A DNA stretch of 64,000 nt from Candidatus Omnitrophota bacterium. GTDB lineage: Bacteria; Omnitrophota; Gorgyraeia; Gygaellales; Profunditerraquicolaceae. Shown in pieces: positions 5,997 through 52,260 of the stretch. Each line of letters opens with the position of its first letter. Position 1 is the stretch's first letter. The DNA lies in assembly GCA_028717885.1 (NCBI GenBank), contig JAQUMX010000002.1, forward strand, positions 12,237 to 76,236, written 5' to 3'. The translations under genes were made by a program, and so were the position numbers. A model generated the notes under the pieces. That model was not told where the DNA came from. It did no database searches and saw nothing but the letters and a program-made list of their open reading frames with translations.

Positions 5997-7036
5997 GAGT
6001 TTTGGTAACAGGCGGGGCAGGAATGGTAGGCAGCCACGCCGCAGAATTTTTTGCTTCAAGTAACCCTAAGAACAAGGTGATTGTTTTGGACAACCTGATG
6101 CGTTCTGAAATTTTTGGATATGAGAAGGCTTCGGTAGAATTTAATTGGAATTACCTGAAAAAATTTAAAAATATTGAACGCATAAAAGGCGATGTGCGTA
6201 ATGACAAAGATTTGTCAAAAGCAGTGGGCCGCGGGGTAGATGTTTTGATCCATACCGCTGGCCAGCCAGGGGTACCTTCCAGCGTACGTATGCCGAAAGA
6301 GGATTTCAGTATCAATGCCTTTGGTACGCTTAATGCCCTGGAAGCGGTGCGCAAAAAATCCAAAGATACGATAGTAGTCTATTGTTCTACCAATAAAGTT
6401 TACGGAGAAAATGTCGATAAGATCCCTTTGGATGAGCAGGAAAAAAGGTATACTTTTAAAGGGGTCAAGGGCGTTACCGAGTCAATGCTTACGGATTTGA
6501 CCGGCCACACGCCATACGGAGTTTCCAAGCTGGTCGGTGATTTGTATGTTCAGGAATACAGTTATATCTATAAAATGAAAACCGCGGTTTTTCGCATGTC
6601 CTGTACTTATGGAACCCGGCAGTTTGGTTTTGAGGACCAAGGCTGGGTAGCGTGGTTTATTATCGCGGCATTGTTTAACCGGCCGATTACGATTTATGGA
6701 AACGGCAAGCAAGTGCGCGATATGCTTTATGCGGATGATTTAGTCGATGCCTTTAACCGTTTTATCAATAGCGACCTTGAAAGGGGGCTTTTTAATATCG
6801 GTGGCGGGCCCGAAAACACTATTTCTCTTTTGGAGTTCCTGGAGGAATTAAAGGTCCTAACCGGTAAATGCCCAAAGGTGAAATTTTCGGATTGGCGTCC
6901 GTCTGATCAGAAGGTCTATATTACCGATACTACGAAACTTCAGAATACGCTTGGCTGGAAGATTAAAACACCGGTCAGGGAAGGGATGAAGAAATTAAGC
7001 ATCTGGATAAAGGAGAACGAGGGTTTTTTTGTATGA
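5993..7036 (+). CDS. Extended SDR NDP-sugar epimerase, CDP-paratose 2-epimerase (tyvelose epimerase)-like
   Basis: 347 aa. VLVTGGAGMVGSH, STNKVYG, YGVSKLVGD, DQGWVAWF, GNGKQVRD and SDQKVYITD resemble RfbE/tyvelose epimerase as I recall it. Confidence 0.65.
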   Translation: MRVLVTGGAGMVGSHAAEFFASSNPKNKVIVLDNLMRSEIFGYEKASVEFNWNYLKKFKNIERIKGDVRNDKDLSKAVGRGVDVLIHTAGQPGVPSSVRMPKEDFSINAFGTLNALEAVRKKSKDTIVVYCSTNKVYGENVDKIPLDEQEKRYTFKGVKGVTESMLTDLTGHTPYGVSKLVGDLYVQEYSYIYKMKTAVFRMSCTYGTRQFGFEDQGWVAWFIIAALFNRPITIYGNGKQVRDMLYADDLVDAFNRFINSDLERGLFNIGGGPENTISLLEFLEELKVLTGKCPKVKFSDWRPSDQKVYITDTTKLQNTLGWKIKTPVREGMKKLSIWIKENEGFFV

Positions 7037-7578
7037 AAGCGGTATTCCTGGACCGCGATGGCGTGATTAACCGCTATCCCGGAGACAAAAAATACGTTAC
7101 TAACGTAAACGCCTTTAAGTTCCTCCCAGGAGTAAAGAAGGCAATTGCCCAATTAACCAAGAGAGGATATGGGATTTTTGTCATTTCTAACCAGGCAGGC
7201 GTAGGGAGAAAGATTTATTCCCGTAGTACTCTGGCGGCAATTACCGAAAAAATGCTGCAAGGGATAAGAAACGCAGGAGGGGACCTTGCCGGCGTATATT
7301 ATTGCACGCACCGTAAAGAAGAAAATTGTTCCTGCCGTAAGCCAAAAACAGGCTTGATTCACCGGGTTATTTCGGAATTTCCGGTAGACCTAAAAGAAGC
7401 GTATTTTGTAGGCGACACTATTCGTGATGTCCTTACTGCCAAAGCAGCCGGATGCAAGTCTATCCTCGTATTTTCCGGGAAAGAAAAATTGAGCAATAAA
7501 AAGAGCTGGGAAGCTGCGCCGGATTTTTTTTGCCGTGACCTTTCTTTGGCCGCAAAACTGATCTTGAGAGGAAAATAG
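7033..7578 (+). CDS. gmhB: D-glycero-D-manno-heptose 1,7-bisphosphate 7-phosphatase (HAD-IIIA)
   Basis: 181 aa. FLDRDGVIN catalytic motif and the Zn-binding insert CTHRKEENCSCRKPKTGL. Confidence 0.8.
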   Translation: MKAVFLDRDGVINRYPGDKKYVTNVNAFKFLPGVKKAIAQLTKRGYGIFVISNQAGVGRKIYSRSTLAAITEKMLQGIRNAGGDLAGVYYCTHRKEENCSCRKPKTGLIHRVISEFPVDLKEAYFVGDTIRDVLTAKAAGCKSILVFSGKEKLSNKKSWEAAPDFFCRDLSLAAKLILRGK

Positions 7579-7585
7579 AATCCCT

Positions 7586-8701
7586 ATGAAGGTAATTATC
7601 GTGCATGCTTCCTGCGGTGCAGGGCATACCAAGGCTGCGCAGGCGATACAAAAGTTTCTCTCCAAGCACGATCAGGAAATAGATTGTCAACTGGTTGATG
7701 TGTTGGAATATTCCCGCGGGCTGTTCAGGTATTCCTATATTCGCGGCTACGCCTTCCTGGTTTTACATGCGCCTTTTTTGTGGTTTCTTTGTTTTTCCGT
7801 GACTCAAGCCTATTTTCTGCGCTGGTTTACCCGGCCGATAGCCATTTTCTTAAACCGGATGGAAACCAGGAAGTTTTGCGATTACCTGATCAAAGAAAAC
7901 CCGGATTTTATCATCTCAACGCATTTTTTACCCTCGGAGATCGCAGCCTCCCTAAAGAAATCAAAGAAAATCAAGTCGCAATTACTTACCGTAATTACTG
8001 ATTTTGGAGTGCATCCTTTTTGGATCTCGCATCCTACCGATTGCTATATTGTCAGCTCCGCTTTTACAAAAAGGCAGTTATTACAGCAAGGCATAATAGA
8101 GGCGCATATCCGGGATATCGGTATTCCCGTAGACGAAAAGTTCTATGCGGCTTATGAGCGCGAGGGCCTAGCCCGGAACCTTGGCCTTAATAGCGATAAG
8201 TTTACCGTATTGATCATGACCGGTTCATTCGGGACCGGGCCACTGGAGGAGATTGCCAGTGCATTATCGCCTTTGGCACAGGTGATCGTGGTTTGCGCCA
8301 GGAACGAAAAACTTTTCCGCAGGCTAAGAGAAAAGGCCTATAAGAACGTAAAGGTATTCGGGTTTGTCGATAATATCCATGAGTTAATGGCGGTTTCCGA
8401 CTGTATGATTACTAAGCCCGGGGGCCTAAGCATTTCCGAAGCTTTGGCAATGGAATTGATCCCGGTATTTATTTCTGCTATTCCCGGGCAGGAAGTGGAA
8501 AATATCGAAGCATTGCGGGAAAGCGGAATAGGTATGTATTTGAAAGAAACCCGGGAAATAAAGGAATTAATTTCAGATTTGAAGGATCACCCCGAGGTAT
8601 TTAGCCGTTTAAAAGAAGACTTAAAAGAAATCCGTAAACCGAATACATTAGAGGAAATTTATAATGTTATATGCAAAAGTCGTCCTGGGGCTGGCAGTTG
8701 A
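7586..8701 (+). CDS. GT28-type glycosyltransferase (MGDG synthase / diacylglycerol glycosyltransferase-like)
   Basis: 371 aa. N-terminus IIVHASCGAGHTKAAQAI is typical of the MGDG-synthase/UgtP-like family. C-terminal GT-B half contains ITKPGGLSISEA. Confidence 0.65.
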   Translation: MKVIIVHASCGAGHTKAAQAIQKFLSKHDQEIDCQLVDVLEYSRGLFRYSYIRGYAFLVLHAPFLWFLCFSVTQAYFLRWFTRPIAIFLNRMETRKFCDYLIKENPDFIISTHFLPSEIAASLKKSKKIKSQLLTVITDFGVHPFWISHPTDCYIVSSAFTKRQLLQQGIIEAHIRDIGIPVDEKFYAAYEREGLARNLGLNSDKFTVLIMTGSFGTGPLEEIASALSPLAQVIVVCARNEKLFRRLREKAYKNVKVFGFVDNIHELMAVSDCMITKPGGLSISEALAMELIPVFISAIPGQEVENIEALRESGIGMYLKETREIKELISDLKDHPEVFSRLKEDLKEIRKPNTLEEIYNVICKSRPGAGS

Positions 8702-10508
8702 AGGCCCATTCGATTATCTTGTACCGGAAGAATTTAAGGGTACGATTGCACCCGGAAAAAGAGTCCGCGTTAATTTCGCCCACCAAAGAAAAATTGGGTT
8801 TTGCGTTGCCGTAACTTCCAAAAGTAAAATCAAATACCATAAGCCAATATTGGAAGTGCTTGATGAGTTGCCGATTTTGGGTAGTAGCATGCTTTTGCTT
8901 ACCCAGCGGATGGCAGATTATTATTGCTGTTTTTGGGGCGAAGCAATTGAAACTGCCCTGCCGGAAGGGATTCGAAATGGAAGAAAACTAAAACTCTGTG
9001 ATTATAGCAGGCAAGGCCGCATTGAACAAAAAGCGCAAACGGTTTTGTTGCATGATTTGGACTCTACGCAAAGATGGGAGTTTTACTGTGGAAAGATCAA
9101 GAAAATCCTTGAAATTAAGCGCAAGGTAATCGTGATTGTGCCTGATGTACCCGCACTTTTACGTGCAAAGAAAAAAATCGAAGCGGTTTTAAAAGCCGAT
9201 ATTTGCCTTTTATACCGGCATGCCAGAGGAGAAAATGAACTTTGGGAGAAAATCTTTTCTGCAAAAGTAGATATTGTCATCGGCACCCGTTCGGCAATTT
9301 TTGCTCCTCTGCCCGATTTGGGCTTGATTATTATTGACGCAGAAGAAGACCATGTTTATAAGCAGGATCAGGTGCCGCATTATCATGCCAGGGAAATCGG
9401 CCTCATGCGTTCGGAAATTGAAAATGTTGACCTGGTTTTAGGCTCAGCCACGCCTTCTTTGGAAGCCTTTTTTCTGGCGAAAAATGGAGCAATCGGATAC
9501 CTGCCTTTGGCCAGGAAATCAAATTTTCCGGAAATCAGGTTTGTAGATACCGCTAACCTTTCTTTTGCCGAAAGAAAAAAAGGCGGCAATATCAGCCGTT
9601 TACTGGAAGATGCGGTTTTTTCGGTTTTAACGGAAAAAGGCAAATCCTTGCTTTTTATGAACCGTAAAGGATATTCTGGAGCGGCAGCTTGTATGCAATG
9701 TAACGCGCTGCTAAAATGCCCGCGCTGCAGCATAAACTTGGTATATCATTTTCACGAGAATACGCTAAAGTGCCATTACTGTAATTTTAAAATGGATGCC
9801 CCTAAAATCTGCCCGGTTTGTAATTCCGGTTATATCAAGTTTTCTGGAGCCGGAACAGAAAAAATCGAGAATGAGCTTTTGCGAATTTTCCCTCAGGCAA
9901 AAATTACGCTCCTGGAAAGCGACCGGCAAGCCAACTTAAAGGACTATGATATTTTTGTTGCTACCAGTGCCGTATTAAAACAGGAAGGCCTGCAATTTGA
10001 TCTCGTCGGCGCCTTGGCTGTGGACAATGCATTGAATTTTCCGCAGTTACGTTCGGCAGAAAATGCTTTCCGGCTGGTTTGGGGGCTGGCAAACCTGACG
10101 GAGGGCAAACTCATCATCCAGACCGCATTTGTTACGCATCCGGTTTTTCAGTCTCTTTGGAAGAAAGACCAGTTATTTTTTTATAATCATGAACTAGAGC
10201 AGAGGAAACAGTTAAAATTCCCTCCTTTTGGGCATTTTGTATTGATAAAATTACGTGGAAAGAATGAAGAAAAGGTAAAAGCATCTGCAGGGGCCTTAAG
10301 CGAACAATTGATAGCTGCCTTGCCAAAGAAAAATTACAAGTTTCTTTCTTCGAATCCTGCGGTTCCGAATAAATTACGGGGGAATTTCTACTGGGAAATC
10401 ATCGGGGTGAGTTGCGAACCGCAAAAATTATCCCCCGGCCTAAAAAAAGAACTAAAAAAATTCGCGCATTCGGGTATAATAATAACAGTAGACGTTGACC
10501 CAATCTAA
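8664..10508 (+). CDS. priA: Primosomal protein N' (PriA) with degenerate Walker A
   Basis: 614 aa. N-terminus YAKVVLGLAVEGPFDYLVP, DExH-like IIIDAEEDHVYKQ, GSATPS, and a Cys-rich region CMQCNALLKCPRCSINLVYH...CHYCNF...CPVCNS. The P-loop position reads HDLDSTQRW instead of GxxGxGKT. Confidence 0.85.
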   Translation: MLYAKVVLGLAVEGPFDYLVPEEFKGTIAPGKRVRVNFAHQRKIGFCVAVTSKSKIKYHKPILEVLDELPILGSSMLLLTQRMADYYCCFWGEAIETALPEGIRNGRKLKLCDYSRQGRIEQKAQTVLLHDLDSTQRWEFYCGKIKKILEIKRKVIVIVPDVPALLRAKKKIEAVLKADICLLYRHARGENELWEKIFSAKVDIVIGTRSAIFAPLPDLGLIIIDAEEDHVYKQDQVPHYHAREIGLMRSEIENVDLVLGSATPSLEAFFLAKNGAIGYLPLARKSNFPEIRFVDTANLSFAERKKGGNISRLLEDAVFSVLTEKGKSLLFMNRKGYSGAAACMQCNALLKCPRCSINLVYHFHENTLKCHYCNFKMDAPKICPVCNSGYIKFSGAGTEKIENELLRIFPQAKITLLESDRQANLKDYDIFVATSAVLKQEGLQFDLVGALAVDNALNFPQLRSAENAFRLVWGLANLTEGKLIIQTAFVTHPVFQSLWKKDQLFFYNHELEQRKQLKFPPFGHFVLIKLRGKNEEKVKASAGALSEQLIAALPKKNYKFLSSNPAVPNKLRGNFYWEIIGVSCEPQKLSPGLKKELKKFAHSGIIITVDVDPI

Positions 10509-10547
10509 ACCAGAATATAAAAAAAGGGGTAAAGTTATTCGTTTGTC

Positions 10548-10630
10548 GGTTACGTAGCTCGAAACGTTTATCGTCAACTGTTAACCGTGCCGTTTAACCT
10601 TAACCGAATTCCGTAACGAGCTACGTAACC
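10548..10630. repeat. Perfect 14-bp inverted repeat (GGTTACGTAGCTCG / CGAGCTACGTAACC) separated by 55 nt in the priA-fmt spacer
   Basis: Read directly: arms at 10548-10561 and 10617-10630. The loop contains reiterated GTTAACC/TTTAACC/TTAACC words. Confidence 0.7.
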
Positions 10631-10650
10631 ATTCAACGATTGACCATTAT

Positions 10651-11595
10651 ATGAATATTGTATTTTTTGGTAGTTCTCACTTTGCAGCCCCGTCGCTAGA
10701 AGCCTTAATCCGCGAGAAATACAATGTTACTTTGGTTGTGACCCAGCCGGACAAAAAGAGCGGAAGAGGGATGCATCCTTCCCATACCGTCATTAAGTCA
10801 GTGGCGCAGGGCTCATCAATCGGAATTTATCAGCCGGAAAACATCAACAGCAAAGAAGCGGCAAGCGTCCTAAAAAAACAAAATGCCGATCTTTTTGTGG
10901 TGATTGCCTATGGGCAAATCTTAACGCAGGCTGTATTGGATATCCCGAAGATTTTTGCCATTAACCTACACGCTTCACTGCTGCCGGAATACCGCGGAGC
11001 AGCCCCGATAAACCGGGCAATCATCAACGGAGTTAAGACTACGGGAATCACGGTAATTAAAATGAACAGGAAGATGGATGCCGGAGAGGTCTTTCTTAAA
11101 AAAGAAACCGAGATTTCGCAAACCGATACTGTTATAGATTTGGAAAGCAGGTTGTCTGAAATGGCTGCACAGGCATTAATTGAGGCTTTAAGATTAATCA
11201 AGGACAAGAATTACAAACTTGTCCCGCAAGACGATAAAGAAGCCAGCTTTGCCCCGAAATTGCATAAATCAGACGGAGAAATTCACTGGGAAGAGCCGGC
11301 AGAAACAATCTACAATTCGTTTCGCGGCACTTTGAATTGGCCGGGTTCCTTTACTTATTATCGCGGTAAACTGCTTAGGGTTTGCAAGCTCAGCGTCTAT
11401 CCTCAGGAGCTGGAAAAAGAAAAATTATCGGCTGGTACGGTCACACATATTTTCAAGGATAGTATCGTTGTGGCGTGCGGAAAAGGAGCTTTACTGATCG
11501 AGGAGCTGCAGCTGGAAGGAAAAAGAAAAATGCCGGTGCAGGAATTTCTTTCCGGGCATAAAATTTCACTAGGGGAAGTGCTAGGAAAAAAATAA
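10651..11595 (+). CDS. fmt: Methionyl-tRNA formyltransferase
   Basis: 314 aa. MNIVFFGSSHFAAPSLEAL and HASLLPEYRGAAPINRAI signatures. Confidence 0.9.
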   Translation: MNIVFFGSSHFAAPSLEALIREKYNVTLVVTQPDKKSGRGMHPSHTVIKSVAQGSSIGIYQPENINSKEAASVLKKQNADLFVVIAYGQILTQAVLDIPKIFAINLHASLLPEYRGAAPINRAIINGVKTTGITVIKMNRKMDAGEVFLKKETEISQTDTVIDLESRLSEMAAQALIEALRLIKDKNYKLVPQDDKEASFAPKLHKSDGEIHWEEPAETIYNSFRGTLNWPGSFTYYRGKLLRVCKLSVYPQELEKEKLSAGTVTHIFKDSIVVACGKGALLIEELQLEGKRKMPVQEFLSGHKISLGEVLGKK

Positions 11596-11623
11596 TTGCA
11601 TAAATTATTTAGTATGATATAAT
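11596..11623 (+). promoter_or_regulatory. Sigma70-like promoter with extended -10 (TTGCAT, 16-nt spacer, TGaTATAAT)
   Basis: TTGCAT at 11596-11601, TG at 11615-11616, TATAAT at 11618-11623, about 50 nt upstream of the 11676 start. Confidence 0.55.
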
Positions 11624-11675
11624 TAACAAGCTTTAAAAGAGATTAGAAAATATTGCCTTTCTAAATTAATTTAAA

Positions 11676-12701
11676 ATGCCAGAATTAAGAAAAGATCCAG
11701 TTATCGGAAGATGGGTGATTATTGCTACTGAAAGGGCTAACCGTCCAGATCAGTTCGCGACCGTTTCCGAAGCCGGCCCCGCAGAAAAGACTTGCCCGTT
11801 TTGCGAAGGCAGCGAACCGCAAACCCCTCCTGAAATTTATTCTATCCGCCCGAAAAACACGCCTCGAAACAGCCCGGGATGGGAATTACGCGTAGTGCCA
11901 AGCATAGCCCCGTTTTTGCGTATCGAAGGAGAGTTGGAACGCAGAGGCAAAGGCATGTATGATTTAATGAACGGCATTGGCGCGCACGAGATCGTGATCG
12001 AAACTAACCAGCATATTGCAAATATGGCGGATTTAAGCGAGGAACAGATTACCAATGTTTTTAATTGCTATATCGACAGGATGAATGACCTGGAAAAAGA
12101 CCTGCGTTTTAAATATGTGATGATTTTTAAGAACTATGGTTGGGTTGCCGGAGGCGGCAGGGTAAAACATTCGCGCAGCCAGTTGATTGCTACGCCAGTA
12201 AACCCTAAACGCGTAAAAGAGGAATTGGTGGGTGCCCGGCAATATTTTGATTATCATGAACGTTGTATTTTTTGTGATTTAATCAAGCAGGAGATTGCCT
12301 CGAAAGACCGTTTGATTTTGGATTCCGACGGGTTTATTGCAGTTGCGCCCTTTGCTGCGCGTTTTCCCTTTGAAACCTGGGTATTGCCTAAAAAACACTC
12401 CTGTGATTTTACCGCTCTTGATAATGACAGCAGAAAGAATCTGGCGCATTTAATGAAGGTTTTGCTATCGAAGTTAAAAAAGGGCTTAAACGACCCGCCG
12501 TATAATTACGTCTTGCATACTGCGCCTTTTAGAAGGCAAAAGCTCGGTTATTGGAAGTCTATTGATAGCGATTATCATTGGCATATCGAAATTATTCCGC
12601 GGTTAACCCGTGTAGCGGGTTTTGAGTGGGGCACGGGTTTTTATATTTGCCCGTTACCTCCGGAAAACGCGGCAAAATTCTTAAGAGAGGTCGAGGTTTA
12701 A
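11676..12701 (+). CDS. GalT-family (HIT superfamily) hexose-1-phosphate nucleotidyltransferase-like protein; predicted catalytically inactive paralogue
   Basis: 341 aa. Zn motif CPFCEGSE and the C-terminal YHWHIE metal site are retained. The active-site H-x-H-x-Q reads KHSRSQ, with Arg (codon 12174-12176) in place of the nucleophilic His. Confidence 0.75.
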   Translation: MPELRKDPVIGRWVIIATERANRPDQFATVSEAGPAEKTCPFCEGSEPQTPPEIYSIRPKNTPRNSPGWELRVVPSIAPFLRIEGELERRGKGMYDLMNGIGAHEIVIETNQHIANMADLSEEQITNVFNCYIDRMNDLEKDLRFKYVMIFKNYGWVAGGGRVKHSRSQLIATPVNPKRVKEELVGARQYFDYHERCIFCDLIKQEIASKDRLILDSDGFIAVAPFAARFPFETWVLPKKHSCDFTALDNDSRKNLAHLMKVLLSKLKKGLNDPPYNYVLHTAPFRRQKLGYWKSIDSDYHWHIEIIPRLTRVAGFEWGTGFYICPLPPENAAKFLREVEV

Positions 12702-13700
12702 ATGTCGGAATTACGCAGGGACCCGATAGTCGGCAGGTGGGTAATCGTAGATACGGATCATCCGAACAAACCGGAAGATTTCGAATACGAACAGTATATC
12801 CCGAAAGGAGGGACTTGCCCTTTTTGCTACGGCAACGAGGCAATGACCCCTCCGGAAATCGATTGTTTCCGCGATTCTAATACCACGCCTAATACCCCTG
12901 GTTGGCAGGTAAGAGTGGTGCCGAATAAATTTCCTGCTTTGCAGATCGAGGGTGAATTGGATAGAAGAGGTGTCGGTATTTATGATATGTCCAATGGTGT
13001 CGGCGCGCATGAAGTATTGGTCGAAACGCCATATCATCACAAAGACCTCTCTGATCTAATGAATACGGAAGTAGAAAATATCCTGCAAATGTGGTGCCGC
13101 AGGGCGAACGACCTGACTAAGGATAAGCGTTTTAAATATATTATGCTTTTCAGGAACTACGGAAAGGCAGCAGGCGCTTCTCTGGAACATCCGCATACGC
13201 AGATGGTTGCCCTTCCGATGATCCCGAAGAATGTAGCGGAAGAAATCCACGGCGCGGAAAACTATTTCGATTACCGCGAACGCTGCATTTTTTGCGATAT
13301 TATCCGGCAGGAAACACAGGAAAAGGAGAGGATTGTCTTCGAAAATAAATATTTTCTTTCTTTTTGCCCTTTTGTCTCGCGTTTTCCTTTTGAAATTTGG
13401 ATTATCCCAAAGAAACATGCCGGGTATTTTTGCCATATGCCGGCTGAAGAGATTCCCGCACTAGCTTCGATTTTGATCGAAACTATTGCCAGGGTTAAAA
13501 CTGTATTTGCGAATCTGTCTTACAATTTTATTTTGCACTCTTCTCCGGTTAACGGAGATAGCGGCCCGGAATATTATCATTGGCACATTGAATTCATGCC
13601 TAAGTTAATGCGCACCGCAGGATTTGAGTGGGGTAGTGGCTTTTATTTGGACCCCACCTCTCCGGAACTCGCTGCAAAATATTTAAAAAACCAAAAATAA
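12702..13700 (+). CDS. GalT-family hexose-1-phosphate nucleotidyltransferase (UDP/ADP-hexose type), intact active site
   Basis: 332 aa. The start abuts the previous stop (TAAATG). CPFCYGNE, canonical EHPHTQ (His codons 13188-13190 and 13194-13196) and YHWHIE. Confidence 0.8.
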   Translation: MSELRRDPIVGRWVIVDTDHPNKPEDFEYEQYIPKGGTCPFCYGNEAMTPPEIDCFRDSNTTPNTPGWQVRVVPNKFPALQIEGELDRRGVGIYDMSNGVGAHEVLVETPYHHKDLSDLMNTEVENILQMWCRRANDLTKDKRFKYIMLFRNYGKAAGASLEHPHTQMVALPMIPKNVAEEIHGAENYFDYRERCIFCDIIRQETQEKERIVFENKYFLSFCPFVSRFPFEIWIIPKKHAGYFCHMPAEEIPALASILIETIARVKTVFANLSYNFILHSSPVNGDSGPEYYHWHIEFMPKLMRTAGFEWGSGFYLDPTSPELAAKYLKNQK

Positions 13701-13746
13701 TAACCAAATAACACCCGGGCACTAATAGCGCCGCACCTTGGCATAA

Positions 13747-14826
<1,080 letters not shown>

Positions 14827-14848
14827 AAGGTTTTAAAGTTGTGGTTAG

Positions 14849-14885
14849 AAGAGGGGTGAAGCGTATTTTCACCCCTCTTTTTTGT
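14849..14885 (+). terminator. Rho-independent terminator after gap
   Basis: 12-bp stem AAGAGGGGTGAA (14849-14860) / TTCACCCCTCTT (14868-14879), a 7-nt loop, then a T-run. Confidence 0.8.
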
Positions 14886-14897
14886 TGCGCAATTCCC

Positions 14898-14925
14898 TTG
14901 ATTTTTGCCGGCAGTATGCTAAAAT
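14898..14925 (+). promoter_or_regulatory. Sigma70-like promoter with extended -10 (TTGATT, 16-nt spacer, TGcTAAAAT) for the rml genes
   Basis: TTGATT at 14898-14903, TG at 14917-14918, TAAAAT at 14920-14925. AAGGAG ribosome-binding site just before the 14978 ATG. Confidence 0.5.
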
Positions 14926-14977
14926 TTAAGTTCAAACCAATCAATTTTTCCCGTCTAAACACAAGGAGCTTTTAAAG

Positions 14978-15844
14978 ATGAAAGGGATAATTTTAGCTGG
15001 AGGCAAAGCAACCAGGCTTTATCCGCTTACCAAAGGCGTATGTAAACAGATGCTGCCGGTTTATGATAAGCCGATGATTTATTATCCGCTTTCAGCGCTG
15101 ATGTTCGGGGGTATACGCGATATCCTGATCATTTCAACTGCCCGCGACCTGCCGAGGTTTAAAGACCTGCTTGGCAATGGCGATAGCTTAGGGATTCGTT
15201 TAAGTTATGCCGCTCAGAAAGAGCCGAAAGGGATCGCCCAGAGCCTGATTATCGCAGAAAAATTCATTCATAACGATACGGTTTGCCTGATCCTGGGCGA
15301 TAATATTTTCTACGGCAATAACCTGACGGAATTATTTAAAGAAGCCGCTAATGTAGATGATGGGGCGATAATTTTCGGCTATTATGTCAAAGACCCGCAG
15401 CGCTATGGCGTGATCGAATTCAATGAATGCTGCCAGGCACTTTCTTTGGAAGAGAAGCCTAAGAAACCAAAATCGAATTACGCGGTTTGCGGCATCTATT
15501 TTTACGACCAGCAAGCAGTAAAAATCGCCAAATCCTTGAAACCTTCTGCCAGGGGCGAGCTGGAAATTACCGACGTAAACAAGAAATACCTGAAGATGGG
15601 CAAGTTAAAAGTAAAGCTGCTTGGCCGCGGTTATGCCTGGCTTGATACAGGCACGCATGATGCTTTAATTGATGCCTCGATTTTTATCAAAACCGTGGAA
15701 GACAGGCAGGGTTTAAAGATCGGCTGTATCGAAGAAATTGCCTACCGAATGGGTTATATTGATAAGAAGAAACTCTTGAAATTGGCAGCGGGAACCAGCA
15801 TCGATTATGCCAATTATTTGAAAAAGGTCGGAACCGATGAATGA
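14978..15844 (+). CDS. rfbA: Glucose-1-phosphate thymidylyltransferase
   Basis: 288 aa. IILAGGKATRLYPLT and YAWLDTGTHDAL. Confidence 0.9.
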   Translation: MKGIILAGGKATRLYPLTKGVCKQMLPVYDKPMIYYPLSALMFGGIRDILIISTARDLPRFKDLLGNGDSLGIRLSYAAQKEPKGIAQSLIIAEKFIHNDTVCLILGDNIFYGNNLTELFKEAANVDDGAIIFGYYVKDPQRYGVIEFNECCQALSLEEKPKKPKSNYAVCGIYFYDQQAVKIAKSLKPSARGELEITDVNKKYLKMGKLKVKLLGRGYAWLDTGTHDALIDASIFIKTVEDRQGLKIGCIEEIAYRMGYIDKKKLLKLAAGTSIDYANYLKKVGTDE

Positions 15845-23346: not shown

Positions 23347-24038
23347 AAAACCGTGATTATCTTTCCGTGGTTTACGACAAAAAACGAACGCCTGTTTCGG
23401 ATTATCCGCAGCAATTAGCAGGGTATTTATCGAAGAGGTTTAACTTGAAGAAAGGGATGCAGTTTTTAGAAATCGGCTCTGGCAGAGGAGATTTCGTAAA
23501 AGAGTTCCAGCACTATGGAATGGTTTGCTCTGCGGTAGACCGCCAGGCCGGATTAAATTACCCCGGAGTAAAATTTTTTCCTTGTGATATCTTGAAAGAC
23601 AGGCTGCCGTTCGGCGATTCTACATTTGATGTGGTTTTTCATAAGTCTTTGGTTGAGCATTTATATGAACCGGATAACCTAATGAAAGAAACTTACCGTG
23701 TGTTGAAGAACTCAGGTAAGTTGATTATTTTGACTCCGGACTGGGAGAGTCAGATGAAGGTATTTTACGAAGATTTTACCCACTCTAGGCCTTACACGGT
23801 TTTGGCAATGAGCGACCTTCTGAAGGTATACAATTTTCGTGCGGTTACTGCGGAAAAATTCTATCAGCTTCCGCCATTCTGGAGGCACCGTTTTTTATTA
23901 ATCTTTGCTAAAGTCCTCCAACTGTTTTTTCCGGTTAAGGCTGCCAGATGGCTTACGGAAAAAACGGGATGGAAATTTTTCCGTTTTTCAGTAGAGTTAA
24001 TGATTCTTGGTTATGGAGAAAAAAATAGTGCAGACTAA
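23343..24038 (+). CDS. Class I SAM-dependent methyltransferase
   Basis: 231 aa. Motif I FLEIGSGRGDF and post-I/II FDVVFHKSLVEH. Confidence 0.75.
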   Translation: MKNRDYLSVVYDKKRTPVSDYPQQLAGYLSKRFNLKKGMQFLEIGSGRGDFVKEFQHYGMVCSAVDRQAGLNYPGVKFFPCDILKDRLPFGDSTFDVVFHKSLVEHLYEPDNLMKETYRVLKNSGKLIILTPDWESQMKVFYEDFTHSRPYTVLAMSDLLKVYNFRAVTAEKFYQLPPFWRHRFLLIFAKVLQLFFPVKAARWLTEKTGWKFFRFSVELMILGYGEKNSAD

Positions 24039-24834
24039 AACCTTTGCCGGATTGGCTAATGTGAATGTCGAACTTACCTCGCGTTGTAATAAAGACTGCT
24101 GGATGTGCGGCCGCAGGGAGAGAGACAAGCTCTATAAGGACATGGCTTATGGCGACATGGATTTCGCGCTGGTGGAGAAAATTGCTTCGGAGCTTCCACC
24201 GGGAATTGTAATCCAGTTACACAATAACGGTGAGCCGTTATTATACCCAAAATTTAAAGAGGTGGTTACATTATTTAAAAAAAGAAACTTTATTACCAAT
24301 ATCGTGACTAACGGAGAGTTGTTGGTAGAGAAATCACAGGAAATTATCGGCATTCTTGATACACTGTCAATTTCTGTTTTTGAAAATGACCGGCGTGCGG
24401 ATATGCAGTTGAAAATAATCAAGGAGTTTATTAAATTAAAAGGCGAAAACAGCCCTTTTACTACTTTAAGATTTGTTGGCAGGGTAGATGAAGCAAAATA
24501 CGCCGATATCAGAATATTAAAAATTAAGAGGCTGTTACATTCTCCTAAGGGGAGCTTCGATTATAAAAGGAAAGATCCGACTATTCCTGAGATCGGGATT
24601 TGCCTGGATTTTTTGAACCACCTGGCCATTGACAGGAACGGCGATGTATCGGTCTGTGTGCGTTTTGATCCAAATCGGGAATTGGTGCTAGGCAACGTAA
24701 GGAATGAAAGTTTACTTGATCTTTGGAATTGCCGCAAAAGGCAAAACATGCTTGCTTTGCATGTTGCAGGGCAAAGAAATAAAATTCCTTTTTGTAGTAA
24801 GTGCCATTTTTGGGGGGTACCTACCGGCGAATAG
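24013..24834 (+). CDS. Radical SAM protein with a Cys-rich SPASM/twitch-like C-terminus
   Basis: CNKDCWMC (codons 24085-24108). C-terminal GDVSVCV ... CSKCHFWG. ATG at 24013; the listed ORF starts at TTG 24007. Confidence 0.75.
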   Translation: MEKKIVQTKTFAGLANVNVELTSRCNKDCWMCGRRERDKLYKDMAYGDMDFALVEKIASELPPGIVIQLHNNGEPLLYPKFKEVVTLFKKRNFITNIVTNGELLVEKSQEIIGILDTLSISVFENDRRADMQLKIIKEFIKLKGENSPFTTLRFVGRVDEAKYADIRILKIKRLLHSPKGSFDYKRKDPTIPEIGICLDFLNHLAIDRNGDVSVCVRFDPNRELVLGNVRNESLLDLWNCRKRQNMLALHVAGQRNKIPFCSKCHFWGVPTGE

Positions 24835-24836
24835 AG

Positions 24837-26225
24837 ATGAGAATATTGCTGATTGTTTATGATAATGATTCGCACCTGTCGAACTTTCCTTTTGGTATAG
24901 CCTATATTGCCGCGGCCTGCCGTAAAGCCGGGCATAAGGTGGAGATTTATAACCAGGATCTGTATCATTGGCCGGAAACCCATCTGCGGGATCTTCTAGA
25001 CCGGGAAGATTTTGACCTGGTAGGGATTGGTGTAGTTGGCGGATATTACCAGTATAGAAAATTACTTAAAATCTCAGAAGCGATAAATCAGTCAAAGAAA
25101 AGGCCTTTTTATTTGATTGGCGGGCACGGCCCATCCCCGGAACCGGAATATTTCCTAAAAAAAACAAAGGCAGACGCGGTGGTTATCGGAGAAGGTGAGG
25201 AAACGGTAGTAGAGCTGTTGCGCGCCTTGGAAGAAAAGCAGAGTTTTGTTGATGTCGCAGGGATTGCTTTTTTGAATCATGGTAAGCTCATCCAGACCCC
25301 TCGGCGTAAATTGATCAGCGATATTGATAAAATCCCTTTTCCCGCGTGGGACCTTTTACCGATGGATTATTACGCGCTTTTTCGCGCGGTAAATATCCGC
25401 AATAACCAGCGTTATATGGCAGTTTTGTCCGGCAGGGGTTGCGTTTTTCAGTGTGCTTTTTGCTATCGTATGGATCCGGGGTTTAGGCCGCGTTCGGCAG
25501 AAAGTATTATTGAGGAAATAAACATCCTTAAAAGCAAATACCAGGTTTCTTATATTGAATTTCTTGATGAATTATTCATGAATTCGGTAGAACGGACAGT
25601 GGGGCTTTGCGAAAGTTTTATTAAGGCTAAACTGGACATTAATTGGGCCTGCAATGGGAGGCTGAATTTTGCCAGGAAGGATGTCTTAAAGCTGATGAAG
25701 GAATCTGGCTGTGTTTTTATTAATTACGGCATCGAATCATTGGATGAGCAAGCATTGCGCCTGATGAATAAAGCGCTGACCGTTAAACAGATTACCGAGG
25801 GGATAGAGAATACTTTGGATTGCGGTATTAGCCCGGGATTTAATATTATTTTCGGAAATCGAGGCGAAACCAAGGAGTCTCTTAAAAAGGGAGTTGATTT
25901 TTTACTTAAATACGATAATCACGCTCAGTTAAGGACAATTAGGCCGGTGACGCCTTATCCCGGTTCACCTCTTTATTATTACGCGATCGAAAAAGGGTTG
26001 CTTAAGGATTGCGCCGATTTCTATGAAAAAAAGCATCTGAACTCTGACCTGCTTTCGGTAAATTTTACCGATTTAAGCGACAAAGAATTCCATCGTGCGT
26101 TATTAGAGGCTAATGTGAAGTTGATCAATAAATATTTTGAGTCTAAAAAGAAATCCGTGGTCAGGCAAAGCGAAAATTTATATTTGAATAAGGACGCCGG
26201 CTTCCGGGGTTACCGGCAAACTTAG
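24837..26225 (+). CDS. Cobalamin-binding (class B) radical SAM enzyme, paralogue A
   Basis: 462 aa from the ATG at 24837, 2 nt after the upstream stop. N-terminal B12-type domain with VIGEGEETVVELL. SGRGCVFQCAFCY at 25440-25463. Confidence 0.8.
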   Translation: MRILLIVYDNDSHLSNFPFGIAYIAAACRKAGHKVEIYNQDLYHWPETHLRDLLDREDFDLVGIGVVGGYYQYRKLLKISEAINQSKKRPFYLIGGHGPSPEPEYFLKKTKADAVVIGEGEETVVELLRALEEKQSFVDVAGIAFLNHGKLIQTPRRKLISDIDKIPFPAWDLLPMDYYALFRAVNIRNNQRYMAVLSGRGCVFQCAFCYRMDPGFRPRSAESIIEEINILKSKYQVSYIEFLDELFMNSVERTVGLCESFIKAKLDINWACNGRLNFARKDVLKLMKESGCVFINYGIESLDEQALRLMNKALTVKQITEGIENTLDCGISPGFNIIFGNRGETKESLKKGVDFLLKYDNHAQLRTIRPVTPYPGSPLYYYAIEKGLLKDCADFYEKKHLNSDLLSVNFTDLSDKEFHRALLEANVKLINKYFESKKKSVVRQSENLYLNKDAGFRGYRQT

Positions 26226-29321: not shown

Positions 29322-30821
29322 ATGAAAAAGAAAATACTGCTGATTAGCAGTAGTTTTGAAGAAGTTTCTTTGATCTCCTCCGGGATTGACCCGAAATTAG
29401 AGATTAAGTATTCGGAGGACGCAAATTATCCTCTTGGCCTGTCGTACCTGGAGTCTTATCTTGTTTCCCGCGGGCATCAAGCATTGACTTTGATGTCCAA
29501 TACTTGCAGTTTTGAGGAATGTTTTAAGAAAACCGTAAAATTGATAGAAGATTTTGCCCCGGATCTAATCGGGTTGCAAATGCTTACTCAGAACCGCGTA
29601 AGTACTTACAGGCTGATTGAACACATTCACCAACAACATCCAGGGATTAAAATTATTATAGGAGGGATTCATGCCACGATAATGCACCGCCAGATTATCG
29701 AAAAATACCCTTTTTTGATTGTAGTTTTGGGAGAAGGGGAGTTAACGCTTGCGGAATTGGCCGAGAAATTACCCCTTGATAATAAGGAATTAGAGGGGGT
29801 CCCCGGAATAGCTTTTAGCCGCGCCGGCGCAGTTTTAGAAACAGCGCCAAGAGGGTTAATAAATGATTTAGATGCGCTTCCTTTTCCGAATCATGAAATC
29901 TTTTTTAGTGAGCAAAGGACTTGCGCTTCTATTATTACTTCGCGAGGTTGCCCATTTGCCTGTAGTTTTTGTTGTTTAAATTCAATATCCCAGCGAAAAG
30001 TAAGAAGCAGGTCAATTCCTAATGTTATTGCGGAAATCGAATGGCTTCTAAGAAAAAATCCTCAAATAACCACGATATGGATTCAGGATGATGGTTTCTT
30101 GATTAATAACCAGCGCGCGGTCGAATTCTGCAATGAAGTCATCCGCAGAAAATTGAAAGTGAATTTTGTTTGTAGCGGCAGGGTAAAGCCCATTAGCAGC
30201 GAGGTGGTAAAAAAATTGGAAGAGGCTAATTTTCAGAAGGTACTCTTTGGTATGGAGAGCGGCGATAATAGTATTTTGAAAAGATGCCATAAGGAAATCA
30301 CTCAAGAAGACGTGCTAAGGGCGTTTCAGCTTTTTAAAAGGTCAAAAATAGAATTACAGGCTTTTGTGATTCTGGGGTTGCCGGGAGAAGATGAGCAAAC
30401 CGTCGCGGAAACCATAAGGTTTGTAAAAAAACTGCAAAAAATCAAATATATGTATTATCCCAACGTATCAATTTTAACGATTTATCCGGGGACAGAAGTA
30501 TATCAAATCGCTAAGAATGCCGGCATAATCGATGACCAGTATTGGTTAACCGATCAGACGACACCGATTTTTACTTTGGAGAACAGCCGGGAACATCTTT
30601 TTGCATTTAAAGAGAAGGTTCTGAATAATATTTCTTCTGATAGAGTGTTTACTCCTGCAGGATTACGGGCACAATTTTTCATGATCCCTGCAATTATTTC
30701 CTATATTTTTCAATATAGGAATTTTAATATTATCAAAGGCGCTGTTTCTAAGTTTTTCAGGGCATTTTTATCGCCAAGGGCTTACGATTCCTTGAAAATG
30801 GCCTATACTAGGCTTAAGTAA
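29322..30821 (+). CDS. Cobalamin-binding (class B) radical SAM enzyme, paralogue B
   Basis: 499 aa. VLGEGELTLAEL, and TSRGCPFACSFCC at 29949-29972. Confidence 0.8.
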   Translation: MKKKILLISSSFEEVSLISSGIDPKLEIKYSEDANYPLGLSYLESYLVSRGHQALTLMSNTCSFEECFKKTVKLIEDFAPDLIGLQMLTQNRVSTYRLIEHIHQQHPGIKIIIGGIHATIMHRQIIEKYPFLIVVLGEGELTLAELAEKLPLDNKELEGVPGIAFSRAGAVLETAPRGLINDLDALPFPNHEIFFSEQRTCASIITSRGCPFACSFCCLNSISQRKVRSRSIPNVIAEIEWLLRKNPQITTIWIQDDGFLINNQRAVEFCNEVIRRKLKVNFVCSGRVKPISSEVVKKLEEANFQKVLFGMESGDNSILKRCHKEITQEDVLRAFQLFKRSKIELQAFVILGLPGEDEQTVAETIRFVKKLQKIKYMYYPNVSILTIYPGTEVYQIAKNAGIIDDQYWLTDQTTPIFTLENSREHLFAFKEKVLNNISSDRVFTPAGLRAQFFMIPAIISYIFQYRNFNIIKGAVSKFFRAFLSPRAYDSLKMAYTRLK

Positions 30822-33586: not shown

Positions 33587-34534
33587 ATGAATACTGAATT
33601 AATCAAGAAATTCTATGCCTTGCTTTTTTTGATCCGCAGGACTGAAGAGGAAATTATCCGGCTTTACCCGACGGACATAATCAAGAGCCCGGTACATTTA
33701 TCTATTGGCCAGGAAGCGGTTTCCGTGGCTGTTTGCCAGGCGCTTAAGCCTTTAGACCTGGTATTCGGGACATACCGCGGCCATGCGATGTACTTGGCAA
33801 AAGGCGGTAATTTGCGCTCCATGATTGCTGAGTTGTATGGAAAGATTTCCGGGTGCGCAAAAGGAAAGGGCGGATCAATGCACCTTATTGATTTGCGCAA
33901 AGGGGTAATGGGGACTTCAGCAGTAGTAGGGACTACTATTCCTCTTGCCGTTGGTTATGCTTATGCTTTAAAATATAAAAACCGCAATGATATCGTTGCC
34001 TGTTTTTTTGGCGATGGAGCTGTAGATGAAGGGGATTTCCATGAAGCGCTTAATTTCGCGGCATTAAAAAAATTACCTGTGCTGTTTGTTTGCGAAAATA
34101 ATTTTTATGCTATTCATTCCCACCATCTTAGCCGACATCATTCCGATAATATTTGCGAGCGTGCGAAGAGTTATGGCATGCCTGCAATGAGGATAAAAGA
34201 TGGGGATATTTTCAAAATATACAAGGCTGCAAGTAGGTATATGGAAAAGATTAGAAAGGGTAGTGGCCCGGCTTTTATCGAGTGTATTACCTGCCGCTGG
34301 AAAGAGCATGTCGGCCCCGGGGATGATTTCCACTTAGGCTATAGAAAAAAGGAAGAAGTTGCTTGCTGGAAGCATAACGACCCTTTAGATAAAATGAGGG
34401 TTTTATTGGATGATAAGGCCAGGGGCTTGATTGAATCGAAAATAGAAAAAGAAATCGAAGCAGCTTTTCTTTTTGCGCAAAAAGATAGTTTTCCGGGAAA
34501 AAATGAACTTTTGAAGGATCTTTTTGATGATTAA
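33587..34534 (+). CDS. ThDP-dependent 2-oxoacid dehydrogenase E1 component, alpha subunit-like
   Basis: 315 aa. ThDP motif GDGAVDEGDFHEALNFAALKKLPVLFVCENN (GDG-x-NN). Confidence 0.8.
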   Translation: MNTELIKKFYALLFLIRRTEEEIIRLYPTDIIKSPVHLSIGQEAVSVAVCQALKPLDLVFGTYRGHAMYLAKGGNLRSMIAELYGKISGCAKGKGGSMHLIDLRKGVMGTSAVVGTTIPLAVGYAYALKYKNRNDIVACFFGDGAVDEGDFHEALNFAALKKLPVLFVCENNFYAIHSHHLSRHHSDNICERAKSYGMPAMRIKDGDIFKIYKAASRYMEKIRKGSGPAFIECITCRWKEHVGPGDDFHLGYRKKEEVACWKHNDPLDKMRVLLDDKARGLIESKIEKEIEAAFLFAQKDSFPGKNELLKDLFDD

Positions 34535-35585
34535 AGGCGCGATGCGTATTTTAAGCTATCCTCAGGCTATTAAAGAAGCAATTGACCAGGAGATGTCCAG
34601 GGATCATTCGGTAATCCTGCTTGGCCAGGGAGTTGATGATCCTAAGGGGACTCTGGGGACGACTAAAGGATTAGCAGAGAAATTCGGCAGAGAAAGGGTT
34701 TTTGATACGCCTTTATCCGAAGACGGAATGACCGGCGTAGCCATTGGCGCTGCTTTAGCAAGATTGCGGCCGATCCATGTGCATATTAGGATGGATTTTC
34801 TGCTTTTAGCAATGAATCAAATTGTAAATATGGCCGCAAAAATGCGTTATATGTTTGGCGCAACTCTCTCTGTGCCTCTAGTGATTCGTGCGATAATCGG
34901 CAAGAGTTGGGGGCAGGGGCCGCAACATTCGCAAAGCCTCTACCCTTTATTGATGAATATCCCGGGATTAAAAATCGTTGCTCCGGTAACTCCTTATGAC
35001 GCCAAGGGCTGCATGATTCAGAGTATCCGTGATAATAATCCGGTAATTTTCATGGAACACCGCCTACTTTATTATCAGAAGGGGTATGTTGCGCAAAAAC
35101 CGTATCTTGTGCCGTTGGGAAAGGCAAGAATCCTGGCACGGGGGCCTGATATCACTTTGGTAGGCGTTTCTTCGATGGTGATAGAATGTTTAAGGGCGCG
35201 GGAATATCTGAGAGAAACCGGGGTACGCGCAGAAGTAATCGATCTTTTATCTTTGAGCCCTTTGGATGCTGATACAGTAATCAAATCTGCTTTAAAAACA
35301 GGAAACCTCCTGGTTATTGATAATGCCTGGTTGCCTTGTGCGGCTGGCGCTGAAATTATCGCCAGGCTCTGTGAAAAAAACCTTTCCCGGAAAATAAAAT
35401 TTGCGCGGATGGGGTTTGCCTTTGTCCCTTGCCCGACTACGCCGTCATTGGAAAAAGAGTTTTATCCTAACGCAGAAAGGATAGCTATACGTGCCTTTCA
35501 GATGTTATTCCCGCGTAAAAAACCATGGGAACCAAAAAATAAAAAAAACAGGCCGGAAGAGGTGTTATTTAAAGGGCCTTTTTAG
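34524..35585 (+). CDS. ThDP-dependent E1 component, beta subunit-like (transketolase-type pyrimidine-binding and C-terminal domains)
   Basis: 353 aa. VFDTPLSEDGMTGVAIGAAL and FMEHRLLY. The start overlaps the alpha stop; an alternative ATG lies at 34542. Confidence 0.8.
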   Translation: MMIKGAMRILSYPQAIKEAIDQEMSRDHSVILLGQGVDDPKGTLGTTKGLAEKFGRERVFDTPLSEDGMTGVAIGAALARLRPIHVHIRMDFLLLAMNQIVNMAAKMRYMFGATLSVPLVIRAIIGKSWGQGPQHSQSLYPLLMNIPGLKIVAPVTPYDAKGCMIQSIRDNNPVIFMEHRLLYYQKGYVAQKPYLVPLGKARILARGPDITLVGVSSMVIECLRAREYLRETGVRAEVIDLLSLSPLDADTVIKSALKTGNLLVIDNAWLPCAAGAEIIARLCEKNLSRKIKFARMGFAFVPCPTTPSLEKEFYPNAERIAIRAFQMLFPRKKPWEPKNKKNRPEEVLFKGPF

Positions 35586-52259: not shown

Positions 52260-52260
52260 T

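Follow-up and report, generated by a model that had tools for sequence, protein, structure and literature searches.

How can an enzyme whose active site is normally built by two identical chains work when one of its two gene copies has no catalytic nucleophile? The question is raised by two adjacent genes in a window of 64,000 nucleotides (nt), the whole stretch of DNA analysed here, from contig JAQUMX010000002.1 of a Candidatus Omnitrophota bacterium. Both genes are currently annotated as galactose-1-phosphate uridylyltransferase (GalT), and both proteins resemble GalT and ADP-glucose phosphorylase. Copy 1 (11676–12701, 341 residues) has an arginine in place of the nucleophilic histidine, and copy 2 (12702–13700, 332 residues) has an intact H-P-H-T-Q motif; these genes and all features of the locus described below lie on the plus strand. 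Judged by its residues, copy 1 cannot be a transferase, and copy 2 is probably unable to work alone. The likely answer, in our view, is that the two proteins form an obligate heterodimer whose single composite active site acts on a nucleoside diphosphate (NDP)-hexose next to gap, and in which copy 1 is the proposed non-catalytic, trans-complementing subunit and copy 2 the proposed catalytic subunit. A preliminary description of this DNA, in which every coordinate is correct, had already suggested that copy 1 might be the non-catalytic partner in a heterodimer, and this idea is now backed by the apparent loss of an arginine pair in copy 2, by the adjacency of the two genes and by natural fusions between them.

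Active-site residues of the two paralogues

The stop codon of copy 1 (TAA, 12699–12701) meets the start codon of copy 2 (ATG, 12702–12704), and the two proteins, reported earlier to align over their full length at roughly half identity, share 46% identity and 67% positives over 337 columns in BLASTP (E 7e-121). Both contain the CPFC and YHWHIE motifs. The Pfam domains PF01087 and PF02744, the two half-domains of GalT, match both copies, and TIGR00209 scores above its cut-off for both; NF008724 lies far below its cut-off. The closest solved relative of both copies is At5g18200 from Arabidopsis thaliana, an ADP-glucose phosphorylase (PDB 1Z84, 1ZWJ and 2H39), with 36–37% identity and phmmer E-values of 4e-74 for copy 1 (residues 2–340 against 1z84) and 4e-66 for copy 2 (residues 3–329). 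The match to Escherichia coli GalT is much weaker for both (E about 1e-21 to 1e-24). The name GalT therefore holds as a family label and fails as a substrate call, because both proteins are far closer to ADP-glucose phosphorylase. The AlphaFold 2 (AF2) model of copy 1 has a predicted local distance difference test score (pLDDT) of 91.9 and a predicted template modelling score (pTM) of 0.91. In Foldseek this model reaches template modelling (TM) scores of 0.82/0.91 to 2h39 and 1z84, and the ranking also favours the At5g18200 type. On the strength of the model and the alignments, copy 1 is a predicted well-folded family member without the nucleophile, a structural rather than a catalytic one.

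For the column analysis, 74 copy-1 and 68 copy-2 orthologues were aligned with At5g18200, the columns were mapped to E. coli GalT, and 89 canonical relatives from a representative search served as the comparison set. In class I GalTs, the catalytic motif contributes a first histidine that holds the zinc and a second that acts as the nucleophile; the hexose is bound by residues from the adjoining subunit. The phmmer mapping used the motif SHSHSQ of 1z84, in which the nucleophile is the second histidine, His186. Arg167 of copy 1, encoded by cgc at 12174–12176 within the KHSRSQ motif noted earlier, aligns with His186, which bears out the earlier column assignment; in PDB 2h39, a nucleophile mutant with the motif SHSGSQ, the same column holds glycine. 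Among the 74 copy-1 orthologues this column contains R (95%), K (3%) and H (3%). The notion that another histidine of copy 1 acts as the nucleophile was rejected, there being no histidine in or beside the column. Furthermore, 116 of the 120 closest copy-1 homologues (78–97% identity) carry H-x-[R/K]-[S/T]-Q, and the substitution is therefore no chance feature of one genome.

Around this column, copy 1 keeps one part of the active site and lacks another. The motif H165-S-R167-S-Q169 (12168–12182) retains the zinc-ligand histidine (H 100%) and the glutamine (Q 99%) on either side of the arginine. The segment C40-P-F-C43 (11793–11804) holds cysteine at both positions in all orthologues, and the zinc site assigned by alignment, comprising C40, C43, H104 and H165 of copy 1 and the equivalent residues of copy 2, is 97–100% conserved, the zinc-ligand role being taken from class I GalT structures. 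The segment R20-A-N-R23-P24 (11733–11747), equivalent to R28 and R31 of E. coli GalT, is also retained (R 100% and R 96%), as is A314-GFEWGTGFY323 (12615–12644), the trans hexose-binding loop corresponding to the region of E. coli Y316/E317. This loop is 97–100% conserved, including A314 at 100%, with the exception of T320 (T 89%, S 11%). The nucleotide-binding strand N-K-F (E. coli N77, D78 and F79) is replaced by S76-I77-A78 (11901–11909); the columns hold S in 93%, I in 72% and A in 49% or S in 24% of copy-1 orthologues, compared with N in 97%, K in 76% and F or Y in 95% of the canonical relatives. In addition, the G-A-S loop of copy 1 carries a one-residue insertion.

Copy 2 presents the opposite arrangement. 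Its EHPHTQ motif is present as reported, with the two histidine codons at 13188–13190 and 13194–13196, and H163-P-H165-T-Q167 (13188–13202), which comprises the zinc ligand, the nucleophile and the glutamine, is invariant among the 68 orthologues (H 100%, H 100%, Q 100%), these three residues aligning with H184, H186 and Q188 of 1z84. The H-x-H-x-Q signature of the nucleophile is thus found in copy 2 and is missing from copy 1. The nucleotide-binding strand of copy 2, N75-K-F-P-A-L80 (12924–12941), is likewise intact (N 100%, K 96%, F 93%, P 100%, A 100%, L 100%). The counterpart of R-x-x-R-P in copy 2, H20-P-N-K23-P24 (12759–12773), is degenerate, with H 44% and N 16% at the first position and K 44% and G 16% at the second. 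In the 89 canonical relatives, the arginine pair (R 100%, R 100%) occurs together with H-H-Q. An independent metagenome scan seeded with copy 2 yielded 48 close copy-2 types and 32 single-copy relatives (about 54% identity); the pattern R..RP is found in none of the 45 paired copy-2 types, in all 37 copy-1 types and in all 32 single-copy relatives. As read from these alignments, the losses of the two copies are complementary, each copy lacking a different half of the catalytic machinery.

The strong conservation of arginine in the nucleophile column could also be taken to mean that copy 1 is active by another chemistry, for example an arginine-assisted direct displacement on a nucleotide sugar by phosphate or pyrophosphate with no covalent intermediate. 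The retained zinc ligands, N153 and Q169 of copy 1 would suit such a reaction, and nucleophiles supplied from outside can restore GalT in which the histidine has been changed to glycine. However, the nucleotide-binding asparagine and phenylalanine are lost from copy 1 and the arginine pair is lost from its partner; moreover, the position tolerates lysine, and related tandem or fused forms have Ser or Tyr in the nucleophile column or lack the motif altogether. We know of no precedent for direct-displacement chemistry in the HIT superfamily, and this explanation is considered very improbable.

The predicted composite site and its natural fusions

The class I GalTs and At5g18200 form homodimers whose active sites lie between the two chains. 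In human GALT, one chain contributes K334 to Q346 to the glucose-1-phosphate site and the opposite chain Q188/N173 (PMC5081055). R28 and R31 of E. coli GalT contact the substrate, and Arg48 of the human enzyme, the equivalent of E. coli R28, comes from the chain opposite Gln188 (PMC5081055). Transferred to the present pair, copy 2 would supply the zinc-held H-x-H-x-Q loop, the nucleophile His165 and the nucleotide-binding strand, and copy 1 would supply in trans the arginine pair R20/R23 and the C-terminal hexose-binding loop. In the alignment, copy 1 has the trans elements of such a dimer site, and copy 2 has lost some of them. A dimer of copy 1 and copy 2 would thereby contain one complete site, the other being without the nucleophile, the nucleotide contacts and the arginine pair. 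Neither homodimer would have a complete site, because copy 1 lacks the nucleophile set and copy 2 the arginine pair. Both subunits would be produced from one transcript by coupled translation; a covalent nucleotidyl-histidine would form on copy 2, and the enzyme would interconvert an NDP-hexose, most likely NDP-glucose, and a hexose-1-phosphate, adding to or drawing from the hexose-phosphate pool next to gap. What the comparison shows is the pattern of residues and its conservation, the adjacency of the genes, the fusions and purifying selection; from these we infer that the proteins physically associate, that only one site works, which substrate they use and which way the reaction runs.

The distribution of the pair is in line with a joint function. 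Whether the HSRSQ-type copy always accompanies an HPH copy had been raised as a question, and the adjacency proves strict in both samples surveyed. In 80 species-level genomes, the copy-1 type lies directly upstream of the copy-2 type (H-x-H) wherever the contig allows, the identity of copy 1 to the copy in the window ranging from 84% down to 60%. In the metagenome sample, the copy-1 type is directly upstream in all 41 copy-2 loci with upstream sequence (nucleophile column R in 35 and K in 4), and the seven copy-2 loci without a copy-1 neighbour have at most 283 nt of upstream sequence. The starts of the open reading frames (ORFs) used here are longest-ORF calls corrected by alignment, and some third-party assembly contigs labelled 'Planctomycetales' carry the Omnitrophota-type locus. 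In a crude neighbour-joining tree, copy 1 and copy 2 form one monophyletic clade each, and the branching within the two is congruent, which fits one old duplication followed by co-inheritance.

Copy 1 might instead be a decaying duplicate, a pseudogene in progress, as the loss of the catalytic histidine and several other active-site residues would allow. Relaxed selection, which would mark such decay, is not what the genomes reveal: over the 40 closest genome pairs, the ratio of nonsynonymous to synonymous substitution rates (dN/dS) has a median of 0.049 in copy 1 and of 0.054 in copy 2; in many pairs of genomes dS is saturated. When all genome pairs are compared, copy 1 is better conserved than copy 2 in 92% of them. 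The ORF of copy 1 is intact in all 80 genomes and 41 metagenome loci, and its AF2 model is a confident one. The pseudogene reading is rejected on dN/dS and retains next to no probability.

Three fusion proteins of the copy1–copy2 type, from three samples and with the same synteny, provide a further view of the pair: P0121 (599 residues), P0271 (596 residues) and P0272 (599 residues), the latter two being 52–56% identical to P0121 over 99–100% of its length. In all three, the N-terminal half keeps the segment ELRKD...VERAKRPNDF, the second half-domain and the loop LTxVAGFEWGTGxYINP, and a deletion of about 48 residues takes out CPFC and the nucleotide strand; H-x-H-x-Q is absent. The C-terminal half begins at CPFC, the first 37 or so residues with the degenerate arginine-pair segment being gone, and retains CPFC, NKFPAL, G-x-HE and AGASLEHxHTQ. 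Its hexose loop is degenerated (GFEWSTGSY, GFERETEIY and GFELATGSY). In the MAFFT alignment for P0121, all copy-1-type sequences were placed on the second half, and the first half is covered by only three sequences. Judged by the segments kept and lost, the fusions preserve exactly the elements of the one predicted composite site and delete elements of the predicted dead site. Together with adjacency, the fusions, as evidence of the Rosetta-stone type, argue for a hetero-association of the two copies. The gene of P0180, for example, is a more degenerate copy 1 (QRVSSH, no CPFC, ERARRP kept) that still stands in tandem with a copy 2, in the order priA-fmt-copy1-copy2-gap. A different kind of double protein is P0151 (871 residues), whose two GalT-like domains are both complete and each carry H-x-H-S-Q, near residues 307 and 695; compared with the half-dead fusions, it joins two apparently intact copies.

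Several points weigh against the predicted heterodimer with a single site. In the two-gene form, copy 2 has retained, at about 100% conservation, the hexose loop GFEWGTGFY that would belong to the dead site, and copy 1 keeps N153 (100%) and Q169 (99%); 'dead' may therefore be too simple a description of the second site. The arginine in the nucleophile column is more conserved than mere loss requires. Two copy-1 orthologues, in loci L059 and L078, retain the histidine although their partners are already without the arginine pair. Furthermore, the degenerate relatives P0130 (L084), P0133 (L083) and P0127 (L086) have no adjacent partner. The trans role of the arginine pair is carried over by analogy from E. 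coli GalT and human GALT, not from an enzyme of the At5g18200 type, and the heterodimer rests on sequence comparison, the modelling being limited to single chains.

The two His-retaining copies (L059, 6001–7032, RHAHSQ; L078, 6001–7017, KHAHTQ) are both nested within the Arg-bearing clade, and this would reflect either reversions in these two or independent losses elsewhere in the clade. Stand-alone degenerate relatives occur at loci L083, L084/L085, L086 and L089/L090. P0133, with an H-x-Y motif, lies beside a baeRF-family gene; P0130, with H-x-V, is flanked by genes for a pantothenate kinase and a Usp protein; P0127, with H-C-S-S-R, follows fmt and has no ORF within 850 nt downstream. P0122, in which H-H-Q is present and the arginine pair absent, lies between lptD and ruvX. 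Pairing as a universal rule of the family was rejected, and the family is more varied than this one pattern because several degenerate relatives stand alone.

The unpaired P0130, P0133 and P0127, together with the homodimeric state of all characterised family members, would favour two separate homodimers, with copy 2 as an ordinary transferase or phosphorylase and copy 1 as an independent protein of non-covalent or binding function in a shared operon. However, copy 2 is without an arginine pair that is invariant in the 89 canonical and in all 32 single-copy relatives, and because of this loss a copy-2 homodimer would hold two incomplete sites. The strict adjacency in both samples, the abutting or overlapping genes and the fusions, which keep only one composite set of site elements, also speak against separate homodimers, and we regard them as improbable.

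The conservation around the second site bears more directly on another possibility, a heterodimer whose second site has become a non-covalent site for hexose-phosphate or nucleotide-sugar, regulatory or substrate-holding, by analogy with the catalytic and regulatory sites of the IDH2/IDH1 NAD-isocitrate dehydrogenase of yeast. In such a site, Arg167 of copy 1, often with a second, inserted arginine, would take over phosphate binding from the lost arginine pair. The hexose-phosphate subsite is kept, since N153 and Q169 of copy 1 are conserved as given above and F, E, G, G, F and Y of the copy 2 loop are at 99–100%; Arg or Lys occupies the nucleophile column in 98%; and there is an apparent charge swap, the trans arginine pair being lost in copy 2 and a cis arginine gained in copy 1. 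For human GALT, the arginine that Q188R introduces close to the nucleophile is reported as probably clashing with Arg48 from the other chain (PMC5081055). Against such a conversion, the site is deleted or scrambled in the fusions and P0180-type genes while the pair persists, and a regulatory site would therefore be dispensable at least there; the conservation of N153, Q169 and the loop could also be structural or related to the dimer interface. A converted second site is thus rather unlikely, and it is just as doubtful that copy 1 has turned its Arg-bearing site into a sensor that binds a hexose phosphate or nucleotide sugar without reacting and controls the single catalytic site. If it were, the pair would form a self-regulating valve between the NDP-glucose/alpha-glucan pool and glycolysis (gap, pgk, tpi) in Omnitrophota, and to our knowledge the first allosteric site of the HIT superfamily derived from a former active site. 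The heterodimer with one composite site, which the comparative data support well, remains the preferred reading in what follows.

Expression signals, gene neighbourhood and predicted function

The suggestion that the pair has its own promoter is supported by a conserved extended -10 element upstream of copy 1. The promoter-like site (11596–11623), read directly from the sequence, consists of TTGCAT (11596–11601), a spacer of 16 nt and TGaTATAAT (11615–11623). A consensus promoter scan did not list the site, its -35 hexamer matching at 3 of 6 positions; it is retained because the extended -10 is conserved. Of 72 related loci, 57 have an extended -10 (TGnTAnAAT) in the 150 nt that precede copy 1; shuffled upstream regions have one in 1.6 of 72 on average. 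The distance from the motif to copy 1 is 61 nt in the window. In 27 of the 72 loci (L001–L080 set), the motif starts 16–18 nt ahead of the start codon, and the mRNAs of those 27 loci may accordingly have little or no leader. The distance from the copy 1 stop to the copy 2 start is at most 5 nt in 50 of 67 loci, the genes usually abutting or overlapping, and a Shine-Dalgarno-like GAGG (12693–12696), located in the last codons of copy 1, precedes the ATG of copy 2 by 5 nt. An Rfam scan of 10400–15100 gave nothing near the gathering score, and hence no riboswitch or leader RNA of a known family.

Directly downstream of copy 2 lies gap (13807–14826), which encodes glyceraldehyde-3-phosphate dehydrogenase (GAPDH; Pfam Gp_dh_N and Gp_dh_C) with the likely start MAVKIG at 13807. 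At its longest, the gap ORF would begin at 13747; conserved GAPDH sequence sets in at 13807, with AAGGAGG just before it, and the 20-codon extension (13747–13806) is probably not translated. The linkage to gap, noted from the window, extends to the relatives: fmt, copy 1, copy 2 and gap form a conserved block, with gap as the next gene in 59 and fmt as the preceding gene in 49 of the 80 loci, as scored by script, most of the remaining loci being contig ends or overlapping ORF calls. In the case of the fusion genes, gap-pgk-tpi follows directly in the two of the three contigs that are long enough to show it (L087 and L092), and phosphoglucomutase lies upstream in two of three. No Leloir-pathway genes (galK, galE, galM) are adjacent to the pair. 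Meanwhile, same-subfamily relatives are fused to enzymes of alpha-glucan metabolism, namely a GlgA-type starch/glycogen synthase in P0156 (814 residues) and GH57 domains in P0162 (875 residues) and P0191 (858 residues), and P0169 is followed by a glgA-like ORF (L091, 1274–1597).

Because of the kinship to ADP-glucose phosphorylase, the neighbouring gap and the GlgA and GH57 fusions of relatives, the pair is predicted to act in NDP-glucose/hexose-1-phosphate interconversion near central carbon metabolism. The same evidence points to the central sugar-phosphate role, rather than one in glycan tailoring, that had been proposed at the outset. Hints that the pair itself moves an adenylyl group from ADP-glucose to phosphate, as an ADP-glucose phosphorylase does, are indirect and come from the GlgA and GH57 associations of its relatives. 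A literature search for GH57 with GalT returned nothing relevant, and the accessible part of a 2024 Chem Rev article on prokaryotic alpha-glucan metabolism contains no mention of GalT or ADP-glucose phosphorylase (PMC11046441).

Upstream of the pair, the genes at 7033–10508 encode a HAD phosphatase, a glycosyltransferase resembling monogalactosyldiacylglycerol (MGDG) synthase, and PriA, and are syntenic in distant Omnitrophota (L082 and L088); the conserved block therefore extends beyond fmt. In the window, the flanks of the pair form a large envelope-glycan island, but those neighbours are not the conserved ones. Downstream, the island (24007–53766) contains five B12-binding radical S-adenosylmethionine (SAM) genes (24801–26225, 29322–30821, 36602–38077, 45118–46779 and 52252–53766) and two further radical SAM genes (24007–24834, with a SPASM domain, and 38083–40068), interspersed with glycosyltransferases (GT2, GT4, GT10-like and GT11), DegT aminotransferases, epimerases/dehydratases and a sulfotransferase. 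This radical SAM set is unusually dense, and its members are candidate sugar C-methylating or sugar-modifying enzymes. Two two-gene sets for thiamine-diphosphate enzymes (33587–35585 and 46776–48502) also lie within the island, one of E1_dh plus Transket_pyr/Transketolase_C and the other a split transketolase-like pair of Transketolase_N plus Transket_pyr/Transketolase_C. Across the window (1–64000), 57 of the 58 ORFs of at least 180 residues lie on the plus strand, an extreme strand bias; the lone minus-strand ORF (57044–57613) lies inside a plus-strand ORF and is probably spurious.

Comparison with known systems

The pair resembles At5g18200 in its two-lobed HIT-like fold, its CxxC/His/His zinc ligands and its GFExGTG loop; the H-x-H-x-Q motif of the plant enzyme is matched in copy 2 and its R-A-K-R-P segment in copy 1. 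However, At5g18200 is a homodimer with two identical complete sites, whereas here the elements appear to be split over two paralogues, with one site degenerate. Compared with E. coli GalT and human GALT, the pair belongs to the same family, in which the active site comes from both chains and the reaction is a ping-pong via nucleotidyl-histidine; it differs in that the similarity is distant, the neighbours are fmt and gap, and copy 1 lacks the required nucleophile. The heterodimer of wild-type and Q188R human GALT provides an experimental parallel, one inter-subunit site being crippled by an arginine beside the nucleophile, and the trans Arg48 is implicated in the Q188R effect (PMC5081055). That case concerns pathological alleles with reduced activity, whereas the asymmetry predicted here is genetically fixed, reciprocal and conserved in the phylum.

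The characterised enzymes of the class I GalT family, including human GALT and the plant ADP-glucose phosphorylase, are symmetric homodimers. Human GALT is the enzyme mutated in galactosaemia. The pair described here would be a natural, phylum-wide, reciprocally degenerated heterodimer, and its fused descendants take the degeneration further, such that the pair and the fusions form a putative evolutionary series separating the cis from the trans parts of a shared active site. It would also offer a natural one-site enzyme for dissecting half-site behaviour. Meanwhile, the linkage to gap, the gap-pgk-tpi and phosphoglucomutase context and the GlgA and GH57 fusions of relatives point to NDP-glucose phosphorolysis in bacterial carbon flow.

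Targeted full-text literature searches found no HIT-superfamily pseudoenzyme, a result that does not bear on direct-displacement chemistry, and no heterodimer of GalT paralogues. We have thus found no prior description of a half-dead mixed pair in the GalT family, while the logic of reciprocal loss is known elsewhere. The features of a pseudoenzyme subunit, namely residue loss under purifying selection, co-occurrence and reciprocal loss, are found in copy 1 and its partner at the sequence level. Heteromers of a catalytic and a degenerate paralogue include deoxyhypusine synthase DHSc/DHSp and AdoMetDC/prozyme in Trypanosoma brucei, the NAD-IDH IDH2/IDH1 in yeast and GlgC/GlgD in Firmicutes. These systems differ from the present pair in fold and chemistry, but the course of events would be the same: a homodimer is duplicated, the losses are reciprocal, the degenerate partner is held under purifying selection, and only the heteromer is complete.

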